Made by a program: the position numbers. Shown here piece after piece: positions 36,001 through 39,000 of a stretch of 48,110 nt of DNA; within the stretch, counting starts at the first letter, position 1; the number at the start of each line of letters is the position of its first letter. Source of the DNA: a virus (lineage: Duplodnaviria > Heunggongvirae > Uroviricota > Caudoviricetes); IMG/VR virus record IMGVR_UViG_2839594473_000007, one strand, 5' to 3'.

Positions 36001-39000
36001 CCAGAACCATACGAATCGCCCGCTGACGGACTTCGGGGGAAAAACGAGTATTTTTAGTCATCCTGTTTACCTCTTTCTCAGGGAGTTTAGTCTCCAGGAA
36101 ACCCGGGGCGGTTCACTAAGTTGAGAATCGGTGATTCTGTCCATTGGTTTATTCCACCCATAGGTTTTACGCAGAATGGCAAGCAGCACTTTAAACTGTC
36201 GCTTGGTCAGATCTGCGCCTGAATAAGCCTCAATCAGCATATTTGATAGTCTGGCGTAACCATCATCGAGATCTGCCACATTACGCTCCTGTTCGGCAAA
36301 GTTACCTCTGCCGAAGTTGAGTATTTTTGCTGTATTTGTCATAATGAATCCTGTGGATTGATCCAGTAATTCCCTCAGAATTGCATATCAATTTGCTTAG
36401 AGTCCCCGGCGGCCACCGGGGATTTTTTCTTTGTGATTCCATCCAATGCATACTTAAAAGCCCTGCTAATCGGACTGATGTCTGATGCCATTCCGAAAGC
36501 ACACAAGACCGAAGCAATAAACCGCCAGTCCGTTCTGCTTATCTTCGATTCATGACAGCCAATCATCTTTGCCAGACCGCGCTGGGTAAGCGTTGACAGG
36601 TTGATGAGTAAATCAGTTTCAGCGCGATCAATTTCTCGCTGTGTTGGCTTGCTGTAGCTTGCTTGTGCCATTTGTTAATTTTCCTATATTGATATTGAGT
36701 TATAGCGGCACACCCAATGGATTTGCCGCTGATGTTTGCTCACCCGGTTAGAGGTGAAAGGCCATGATGAAAGAGCGGGTACTGCTTAGGCGGCTTTGTT
36801 ACTGGATGGAGGGAAAACATCATCCAAAGAACATTGGCACCCTAACTTCCTGAGGCCTTCTACGATCATTCGGCAATCGTTAAGGCCAGGAGTACGGATA
36901 TTCAGCTCATAGTTGGCGATGCGGGATTGCCCCCAACCAATTGCCGAAGCTAGTACAGCTTGCGAAACTCCGATTTTTTTTCGCTGCTGGGCAATTTTGT
37001 TCATTGCGGTCTCCCTAGCATTAATCACACACCCATTACACACAATTTGTGATTAACAGTCAACCTCAATTCGTGTACAGAGTTCAATCACGTTGCGTGT
37101 TACATTTAAGGGATGAAAACGATGCATGAAATTATCGGGGAAAGGATCAAGTCCCTTAGAGAAGCTAAAGGACTTAGCCAGGCTCAATTGGCCAAGCTTT
37201 GCGGCTGGGCTGCGCCTTCACGCCTGGGGAACTACGAGTTAGGAACAAGAAAGGTTAGCGCGGATGACGCGCTGGTTCTTGGGGCGGCACTCGGCGTATC
37301 TCCGGCAAAAATAATGTTTGGCGAGGATTCAGACGCCGTATTTCGCCAATATGAATACCCGTTATTTTCTTCAGTGCAGGCCGGGCCATTTTCGGAGGTG
37401 GGAAGCTACACAGCCAGCGATGCAAAGGCATGGGTCCCAACGACCACAAAAGCCAGCGAAAAAGCTTTCTGGCTTGAGGTGAAGGGGCATTCAATGACGG
37501 CGCCTCAGGGGGTTCGTCCAAGTTTTCCGGAAGGCATGCTGATACTCGTTGATCCGGCTGAGCCGGTAGAGTCTGGGGATTTCTGCGTGGCTTCTGCAAA
37601 TGGTGATTCAGAGGCAACGTTCAAGAAGTATGAGAAGGATGCAGGGGTTAGTTACCTGGTACCTTTAAACCCGGCATATAGAACCCTGGATTGCGACCAT
37701 AGCTGCCGCATCATAGGCAAGGTAGTTAAGGCGCAGTGGCCTGAAGAGACGTTTGGCTGATCGGCAAGGTGTTCTGGTCGGCGCATAGCTGGTAATCCAA
37801 CTTTTCCCTGTTCTTTTTATGCAAATTAATCTAATGAAATTGAAAAGATTTTTACCTATTTTGTTGGTTCAGGAGAACATAAATGAGCGATAAACAAGAA
37901 GTTTCCTTAGCACATATCAATGATGTGCTGGAGTCCAAAAATTATATTGAAACTAATGCTGATGGGGTTGTAACCATCGGAACGGATAACAATGGCTACG
38001 AAGTTTTTAACTTCGTTTTTCTCAATAGCACCCCTGTCATCGGCCATATGAATGGCGAAATCGCAGTGGCAGGAATGCAGCGCACTAAGGTTGCGTCCGT
38101 GACTTTAAGTAAACAGAAGGCCTTCGATTTCTATCAGTCCTTGAAAAGCATGTTCGAGGAATAAAAGCTGATGAATGCAGCTCAATCATCTTTGGATGAG
38201 GGAAAGCTAGTAATTGCTTACTCTGATAAGAATGGCTCTACAGTAGGGCTGGAATTTTCTTCTGTAGCATCAAGCCAAGCAACGCTCTTGATGAAAGCTT
38301 GTTCTGTTGCTGCTTCAGATAAAGAAAAACGGATTGTCACATCGGTTGTGATGGATGATACTGAGATCATTCAAACAACAAGTGATGATGGAGGCGACGA
38401 CATGGATAAGCGATTAGCAGTTCTTGAAGCTGAAGTTGCGCACATCAAGAGCAGCATGGCAGGAATTAAAGAGGATACCCGGAAAATATCTTCTGATTCT
38501 ACTGACGCCAAAAGAGACACCGCTGTACTTTTACAGAAGAGCCTGGATTTTGATGCTTCATTATCTAAGAAACCATCGGTTGACTACTTTGAAGCTAAAT
38601 TTTCCGCTTTGGAAACCAAGATAGCAGATGTAAAAGTATGGATGCTCGGGGTTCTCTTGGCCTCGCTTGCTATGCCAACTATATTTTTCCTAATAAACTT
38701 GTACCTTAAGAAAGGTCAGTAATTTAGCAAATCCGGCCACCGAGCCGGGTTTTTTATTGCCCGCCGATCACTATCAGGACAGCACCTGCCCGCCGGTCCA
38801 AACTATTGATTAAATTACTATAATTCTTAATACAACTCCCATATCCCGCCATCTCGCCACCACCCCATTCGCTCGTTTTTCGAACTTTTCAGCACCCATC
38901 CTGCTGTTGCCACCGACTTAAGTAAGCAAAACCATCGCGGGTAAAACTATTTACACAAAAAAATCATACACATAACGTGTCACACCTTTATTTTACACAT

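Follow-up and report, generated by a model that had tools for sequence, protein, structure and literature searches.

A two-gene cassette in the rexAB slot of the O157:H7 prophage VT1-Sakai/Sp15, a candidate modular phage exclusion system

The whole stretch of DNA analyzed here, referred to as the window, is the 48,110-nucleotide (nt) IMG/VR virus record IMGVR_UViG_2839594473_000007 (Caudoviricetes), and the subject is a pair of adjacent genes within it, termed A and B, that directly follow the repressor gene cI and code for proteins of 93 and 183 amino acids (aa). Positions 37761-38800 match Enterobacteria phage VT1-Sakai (AP000400) with 100% identity, as they do prophage Sp15 of E. coli O157:H7 Sakai; CP-933V of EDL933 and many other O157:H7 genomes are also identical over this interval. 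The window is the lambdoid Shiga toxin 1 (Stx1) prophage VT1-Sakai/Sp15 in its 'leftward' reading direction, with the gene order cro (-), cI (+), A, B, oL/pL, N, sieB (-), ea10-like, cIII/kil, gam and bet. The genes cI, A and B lie on one strand, with a spacer of 122 nt between cI and A and a gap of 6 nt between A and B. Immediately behind the cI stop codon, a stretch of 31-35 nt is common to lambda, 434, SfI and the phage in the window; beyond a shared 31 nt, lambda continues into rexA and the window phage into gene A. At the right end, lambda and the window phage carry a similar CCGGCC...GCCGGG(T)n hairpin before oL, and the A-B pair thus fills the exact rexA-rexB slot. The initial annotation of this DNA, which had placed two open reading frames (ORFs) on the same strand after cI at the rexAB position, is borne out in both respects, by the recovery of the two ORFs and by the 31-nt left junction shared with lambda together with the Timm-like right end.

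The occupation of this slot has a prior record. Phage HK544 combines lambda's own cI and operators with an A-B pair that is 99.5% identical and stands in place of rexAB, and in its 2007 GenBank record, which belongs to the study of Degnan et al. 2007, the two genes are entered as conserved hypothetical proteins resembling ECs2991/ECs2992, with Timm behind them. As that record annotates ORFs between cI and Timm, the replacement of rexAB by A-B was already known, and the earlier description of the arrangement as undescribed fails on this record and on the published status of the cI-N interval as a hotspot. According to later papers that cite Degnan et al. 2007, the interval between the repressor and N is a mosaic hotspot for accessory genes, for example rexAB and bstA; as summarized in those sources, both of these occupants are abortive-infection systems. 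The A-B pair is present or absent among related phages with conserved flanking junctions, as is characteristic of a moron cassette.

The boundaries of the transcription unit are marked on both sides. A pRM-type promoter upstream of cI, placed in the window with the offset of 7782 between AP000400 and window coordinates derived from the 100% match, is presumed to be the promoter of the cI-A-B transcript. A terminator scan of 37761-37882 gave no terminator-like site; the sole stable hairpin of the cI-A spacer, at 37756-37782, extends over the cI stop codon and is not followed by a U-run. This cI-stop hairpin (37756-37795, +) falls in the 31-35 nt conserved after cI in lambda, 434, SfI and the window phage, and it may serve in RNA stability or processing, or may simply mark the cassette recombination junction. 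Behind B lies a GC-rich hairpin of 9 base pairs (bp) at 38729-38752, followed by TTTTTTATT (-13 kcal/mol), which AP000400 and EF120455 annotate as the pRM/Timm terminator and which recurs behind B homologues in Cronobacter and Serratia loci. The scan and the annotated Timm-like hairpin agree with the earlier claim that a terminator is lacking from cI to A and present after B; as the terminator starts at 38729, the end coordinate of 38756 previously assigned to the two-gene module takes in the terminator. Given the absence of a terminator between cI and A, the layout of the three genes fits co-transcription. A weak hairpin inside gene A (37995-38025, +; 8 bp followed by UUUUUCUC, -8.2 kcal/mol, z = -2.9) resembles an intrinsic terminator of low strength and could reduce expression of B in comparison with A. 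Despite this hairpin, B protein is present in published proteomes, and the U-run of the hairpin consists of conserved Phe codons.

In base composition, A (41.8% GC) and B (41.3%) are more AT-rich than cI (52.5%) and the window (51.6%), in agreement with the earlier observation. The AT-richness is not unique to the pair, however, as the nearby sieB (39.9%) and ea10-like gene (38.5%) are equally AT-rich, and low GC is a trait of the whole early-left accessory region and not of A-B alone.

Both products are made by uninduced O157 cells, as the initial annotation had expected of genes expressed in the lysogen. The Z3360 (B) protein was found in uninduced O157:H7 (EDL933) with an abundance index APEXi of 858 (PMC3210124), and the ECs2991 (A) protein was detected in O157 rumen-fluid cultures (PMC3936929). 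On arrays, Z3360 mRNA reached log2 values of 11.8-13.0, among the higher prophage signals in the table, and was approximately 2-fold higher in an rpoS mutant (PMC2907692). These published proteomes and arrays indicate that A-B is expressed from the repressed prophage. As the pair is conserved (in 54 of 56 loci, see below) and mass spectrometry has identified both proteins in O157:H7, A and B are genuine genes and not chance ORFs.

Comparison across genomes reveals a strict association of the two genes. With A or B as bait, 56 loci were recovered, and in 54 of them A directly precedes B; in one further locus (L051, 662-2977), an insertion sequence (IS) is situated between the A-like and B-like genes. 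Another locus (L011, 5288-5815) has an intact A beside a 98-aa C-terminal fragment of B, which is frameshifted or truncated according to gene calling, and since the decayed B stands next to an intact A, loss of B appears to be tolerated. A profile search for A returned 62 clusters, all of 93-101 aa, all from Enterobacterales and none with a Pfam domain. The pair is present in 106 of 5,426 complete E. coli genomes, with 93 of the 106 near-identical and mostly from O157. The gene upstream of A belongs to at least 8 repressor clusters with mutual identity below 50%, including VT1-Sakai cI, lambda cI, RacR-like repressors of Rac-type prophages and several other S24 repressors, the last of these in Escherichia, Klebsiella, Enterobacter, Citrobacter, Cronobacter, Serratia and Pantoea. 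The cargo character suggested by the initial annotation is upheld by this placement behind at least 8 unrelated repressors, and the comparison of these sequences points to A-B as exchangeable cargo of repressor operons.

A pair of small genes, separated by 6 nt and almost never found apart, with the soluble protein encoded first and a single transmembrane (TM) helix in the second product as in some membrane toxins, could also be a toxin-antitoxin-like addiction pair in which B is a membrane toxin and A, encoded upstream, its antidote, stabilizing the prophage. This explanation is very improbable, as neither protein resembles a toxin-antitoxin family in Pfam, NCBIfam or PADLOC, B with its 183 aa and long soluble part is unlike the known small membrane toxins, and the L011 locus keeps A with a broken B.

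Protein A is acidic (pI 4.85) and soluble, and its AlphaFold2 (AF2) model consists of beta strands followed by a C-terminal helix, at a confidence (predicted local distance difference test score, pLDDT, of 46.5) too low for a fold search. Protein B has a single hydrophobic segment at residues 157-176 (Kyte-Doolittle value 2.15 in a 19-residue window), followed by 7 residues. Its AF2 model (pLDDT 64) contains a beta-hairpin plus helix at residues 10-47 (pLDDT approximately 78), disorder at 57-76, a helix at 78-132, and a second helix at 137-182 that runs into the membrane segment. The single TM helix and the long helices of the model fit the initial description of B as a tail-anchored protein with a charged helical middle. 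Since B lacks a signal peptide and carries its TM helix at the extreme C-terminus, it is predicted to be anchored in the inner membrane by its tail, with most of the protein in the cytoplasm, and its coiled coil probably mediates oligomerization. A weak resemblance between A and the N-terminus of B, also noted at first, finds no support in profile comparison, with an hhalign probability of 1.7%.

Searches with profiles and structures place neither protein in a known family. Pfam, NCBIfam and PADLOC gave no significant match for A or B, with no Pfam match at E <= 1, in keeping with the earlier statement that neither resembles RexA/RexB or any recognizable family, to which the PDB and BLASTP searches also conform. 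In PHROGs, A falls into phrog_12039 and B into phrog_12602, two families to which no function is assigned. Profile searches of PDB sequences returned nothing for A and only generic coiled coils for B, and a Foldseek search of the B model against viral structures (BFVD) gave no match at E <= 0.001. The Z3360 protein has been classed as an atypical lipoprotein on the basis of the motif MKAC44S, flagged 'no hydr LS' (PMC3210124). This assignment was rejected for B, as the Cys lies 44 residues into the protein with no signal peptide or hydrophobic leader, and is not conserved among homologues (the L009 B reads LMQAVQIAAS and P0008 is without Cys). Membrane association of B is attributed to the C-terminal membrane helix and not to a lipobox.

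Table 1. Features of the cI-A-B unit, of protein B and of the adjoining control region (positions in the window)
Feature	Position	Strand	Basis or remark
pRM-type cI maintenance promoter	37074..37103	+	Transferred from AP000400 annotation 44856-44885 ('putative')
cI repressor, 215 aa, helix-turn-helix (HTH) + S24 peptidase, first gene of the operon	37113..37760	+	Peptidase_S24 + HTH, E 3e-26
cI-A intergenic region, 36% GC, no intrinsic terminator	37761..37882	+	Left cassette junction in first 31-35 nt
Gene A, ECs2991/Z3359, WP_001280993, 93 aa	37883..38164	+	ATG start, AGGAG Shine-Dalgarno 7 nt upstream
Gene B, ECs2992/Z3360, WP_000990548, 183 aa	38171..38722	+	
B N-terminal domain, residues 1-56, beta-hairpin + helix	38171..38338	+	
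B acidic disordered linker, residues 57-77, 7 D/E, no K/R	38339..38401	+	
Junction motif DGGDxMxxRxAxLExxVxxIK, B residues 73-93, invariant	38387..38449	+	
B coiled-coil region, residues 78-156, including conserved LQK..D.D..LSKKPS	38402..38638	+	
B C-terminal TM helix (residues 157-176), 7-residue tail, stop codon	38639..38722	+	
Intrinsic Timm-like terminator, right cassette junction	38729..38760	+	Ends the predicted cI-A-B transcript
oL operators + pL, start of the next (lytic, N) unit	38966..39036	+	Transferred from AP000400 46748-46818
N	39235-39507		

The layout of B invites comparison with the ElaB/YqjD/YgaM (DUF883) class of E. coli, which likewise has a helical cytoplasmic region, a single C-terminal TM helix and a very short basic tail, and suggests a host-fitness or stress module (with stress protection at the membrane or through ribosomes), or a lysogenic-conversion factor like lambda bor/lom, with A as a partner or chaperone. 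High expression in stationary-phase and rumen-fluid cultures, modestly RpoS-dependent, and retention of the pair in the widespread O157 Stx1 prophage would accord with such a role. Unlike these host proteins, B is encoded by a phage, comes with a partner gene of its own and possesses an additional N-terminal domain, and no DUF883 match at E <= 1 and no Pfam match to any other stress family was obtained. The variable partners and recombining modules described below look like an arms race rather than housekeeping, and the module is, apart from the Salmonella phage S107 locus, strictly tied to prophage repressor operons, so that a function in host fitness is considered quite unlikely.

The relationship between A and B is not uniform along the length of B. 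Across 25 distinct pairs, the identity of A tracks that of the B N-terminal domain (100/100, 83/81, 75/79, 63/47 and 38/36% for A and N-domain, respectively), and the B C-terminal module (C-module) varies separately: in L012, A and the N-domain are 38 and 36% identical and the C-module is 86% identical, and in L031 the corresponding values are 83, 81 and 42%. In addition, DNA similarity to a Rac-type variant ends at query base 568, corresponding to approximately 38450 in the window, directly past the motif DGGDxMxxRxAxLExxVxxIK (Table 1). The pattern shows B to be a mosaic whose C-terminal module has been swapped independently of A and the N-domain, with the motif as the recombination joint between the N- and C-terminal modules. 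At least 4 unrelated types of membrane helix are found on the same B coiled coil.

The C-module extends well beyond the A-B pair. A profile of the module searched against 1.84 billion representative proteins gave 595 matches at E <= 0.001, and among the best 149 of these at least 71 combine the motif with a single C-terminal TM helix. The length of the N-terminal extension in this family varies between 0 and 87 residues, usually after a Gly-rich stretch. Just upstream of the C-module gene, the end of another ORF is found in 88 of 89 loci, and these upstream partners form at least 8 families that are unrelated by BLASTP, comprising A, proteins of 137-162 aa, zinc-ribbon-like CxxC...CxxC proteins of 112-132 aa, proteins of 63-172 aa, and four smaller groups of 94, 98, 132 and 88 aa. 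The gene before the partner is a prophage repressor (S24 type, RacR-like or Mnt) in all cases apart from S107. As the C-module loci were collected with the analysts' own queries, the proportions are biased, and the qualitative pattern is consistent. B-like genes with unrelated partners after repressors occur in L066-L090 (e.g., L067 3086-3800, L068 2915-3821 and L088 3032-3857), where the 98-aa partner has an A-like layout. Ten variant partner and B-like proteins had no Pfam match, and PADLOC returned only coiled-coil noise for them (E >= 0.0025). When A was compared with the 98-aa, 88-aa and 94-aa partners, remote homology was not established; the best result was obtained with L088 (hhalign probability 9%, E 0.004), which is no more than suggestive. 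New in this analysis are the strict A-B linkage combined with movement among at least 8 repressor types, and the mosaic B with its invariant joint, the C-module of which defines a wide family of two-gene cassettes.

The S107 locus is of a different kind. In orf25-27 of this Salmonella phage (L057 3050-4230), a zinc-ribbon partner and a B-like gene lie between Rha genes and the tape-measure gene, and behind the B-like gene comes a small predicted lipoprotein (MKKVVALALGALMLSGC...). Together they may form a further accessory cluster.

A second recurrent position of the C-module is found in phages of the P22 type. In Salmonella phage UPF_BP1 (L058 2825-3797), a 94-aa gene (phrog_4231) and a 149-aa C-module gene lie between mnt and gene 16, and the same placement is seen in L060-L065, which are P22-like Salmonella and E. 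coli phages. The slot between mnt and gene 16 is the sieA position on the P22 map. The UPF_BP1 cassette thus resembles P22 sieA (immI, mnt operon) in standing directly after mnt, whereas A-B of the window is in the cI operon and not in an mnt operon. This position raises the alternative of a non-abortive superinfection exclusion at genome entry, in which a tethered B, together with A, would block the injection machinery or the incoming DNA and the cell would survive, as with P22 SieA or HK97 gp15, or with an effect at the site of SNIPE action. A membrane-anchored and abundant B would suit a stoichiometric blocker, the swappable TM helices would have an anchor role, and a recent example demonstrates that defence proteins of the inner membrane can target injection from their cytoplasmic face (PMC13190303). 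The placement after mnt would fit as well. Against this alternative, the Pfam and NCBIfam searches found no nuclease or other enzymatic domain in A or B. SieA is a polytopic membrane protein, and the entry blockers Imm, SieA, gp15, Ltp and Llp in general either have a periplasmic functional part or are polytopic. Nearly all of B is predicted to be cytoplasmic, unlike these proteins, and a block of genome entry is rated as unlikely.

Some members of the C-module family point to the prophage's own cycle. Of 58 relatives, 20 match the PHROG 'hemolysin' families phrog_937 and phrog_1193 at E <= 1e-3, which are taken here to be XhlA-like tail-anchored proteins, and Pfam XhlA is matched in 6 of the 58, all below the gathering score, with a best E of 4e-4. 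The window's own B matches neither the XhlA Pfam family nor the PHROG 'hemolysin' families. XhlA (PF10779) shares with B a short coiled coil followed by one C-terminal TM helix, and XhlA genes reside in lysis cassettes. Membership of B in the XhlA family was rejected in view of scores below the Pfam gathering threshold and of an occurrence in repressor operons instead of a lysis cassette. A function in the prophage's own cycle could consist of biasing the lysis-lysogeny decision or induction, as recently reported for RexA, or of setting lysis timing, like PBSX XhlA. Besides the recurrent weak 'hemolysin' and sub-threshold XhlA matches, it finds a precedent in RexA/RexB of the same slot, which are reported to assist the transition to lytic growth (bioRxiv 10.1101/2021.04.19.439022). 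As the module stands behind unrelated repressors (S24 cI, RacR-like and Mnt), a specific interaction with a switch protein is unlikely, and with a pI of 4.85 A is unlikely to bind DNA as RexA does. Every examined locus except S107 lies in a repressor operon and not in a lysis cassette, and the Pfam XhlA matches are far below threshold, which together make a role of this kind distinctly improbable.

The closest parallel in organization is lambda rexA-rexB. Both pairs occupy the slot directly after cI with the 31-nt junction and a Timm-like end before oL/pL, and both consist of two lysogen-expressed genes, of which the first codes for a soluble and the second for a membrane protein. The proteins themselves, in contrast, show no similarity (BLASTP best E 2.2; no RexA/RexB match in Pfam or PADLOC). 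RexA is a DNA-binding protein of 279 aa, whereas A has 93 aa and is acidic; RexB is polytopic, with four TM helices in 144 aa, whereas B has one C-terminal TM helix and a cytoplasmic part of approximately 155 residues. A-B takes the place of RexAB, but by its sequence and by the topology of its membrane protein it is not a member of the RexAB family. The bstA gene of Salmonella BTP1 offers a further parallel, as it also lies behind the repressor in a mosaic region, with a terminator of its own and presumably under the promoter of the repressor, and reaches high expression in the lysogen. It differs from A-B in that BstA is one large cytoplasmic protein and has a self-immunity element based on DNA, and there is no homology between the two.

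These parallels favor a role of A-B in phage conflict, because the known occupants of the slot, rexAB and bstA, are exclusion or abortive systems, because the second slot of the C-module, after mnt, is the place of sieA in P22, and because one conserved part is combined with many partners and diversified by recombination. The stk gene of 933W is a further exclusion or abortive-infection occupant of the repressor-N slot. In the proposed mechanism, A-B would be an accessory ('moron') cassette that is co-transcribed with cI from pRM/pRE up to the Timm-like terminator. A would be a small acidic cytoplasmic partner that interacts with B; A and the variable B N-domain would sense the infecting phage and set specificity, and the coiled-coil/membrane module of B, as an oligomer, would disturb the inner membrane such that infection is aborted. 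The outcome would be a heterotypic phage exclusion like that of RexA/RexB, achieved by proteins with no relationship to them. Among the defence mechanisms, an abortive one is favored on account of the order of the two genes, the position of the variable parts in the cytoplasm and the recurrent but weak 'hemolysin' PHROG matches.

Several observations weigh against this interpretation. The fold search was empty and the structure models are poor (pLDDT 64 for B and 46 for A), the family searches detected no enzymatic or known sensor domain in A-B, and no model of PADLOC (PADLOC-DB v2) matches any A/B variant. Interchangeable TM helices suit a simple anchor better than a specific channel, physical linkage alone can explain the correlation between A and the B N-domain, and the 'hemolysin' PHROG and XhlA matches are weak and may reflect only coiled-coil and TM composition. 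The abundance of B in uninfected cells is awkward for a lethal pore-former, although RexB is likewise constitutive. The searchable literature yields no functional study of the A and B proteins and no phenotype for them; no paper in it mentions WP_001280993 or WP_000990548, and none of the Z-numbers is present in the supplements of a transposon-sequencing paper on enterohaemorrhagic E. coli (EHEC). In view of the abundance of B, its interchangeable TM helices and the lack of a phenotype, a function of A-B in defence of some kind is held to be evenly balanced, and Rex-like abortive exclusion through a membrane effector is put forward only tentatively.

A wider version of the exclusion hypothesis, which is possible if doubtful, regards A-B as one member of a large modular family of prophage defence systems in repressor operons, with a conserved, tail-anchored coiled-coil effector in the membrane (PHROGs 3556/12602/6136/6324) and at least 8 small 'sensor' partners that are unrelated to one another. 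In such a family, the effector would be recombined at the invariant joint onto N-terminal adaptors, and each partner would set which phages are excluded.

The remaining features of the region concern the neighbors of the cassette. The interval 38761-38965, which separates the A-B terminator from the first oL operator by approximately 200 nt, has no assigned feature and no sizeable ORF, and an Rfam search of 36000-40500 gave no RNA family. Just past N lies a gene of the SieB superinfection-exclusion family (39524-40105, -; Pfam SieB, E 1e-25), and by this match the prophage already has one recognized exclusion gene less than 1 kb from the A-B pair. On the other side, an IS3-family element (IS1203/IS629-like) at 34848-36342 is inserted in the replication gene O, with orfA (35735-36061) and orfB (34848-35738) on the minus strand, and the remnant of O is a 91-aa N-terminal ORF at 36067-36342. 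O is uninterrupted in VT1-Sakai and FORC_044, and the same IS insertion occurs in a few O157 genomes, e.g., that of strain 124. The copy of the Stx1 prophage with the IS in O is probably replication-defective.

The A-B pair belongs to a prophage of medical relevance and is one of many uncharacterized cargoes at a hotspot already known. The Stx1 prophage of most O157:H7 strains carries the pair, uninduced cells produce it, and its presence in HK544, a plaque-forming phage with lambda immunity, renders its function genetically easy to test. Should the pair serve host fitness or the prophage's own cycle instead of exclusion, B would still be an abundant membrane protein of EHEC. If the exclusion hypothesis is true, A-B would be an analogue of RexAB that lacks any homology to it and would affect the growth of therapeutic phages and of other Stx phages on EHEC, and the C-module genes with their partners would constitute a sizeable new family of prophage defence cassettes that diversify by recombination at a fixed joint.

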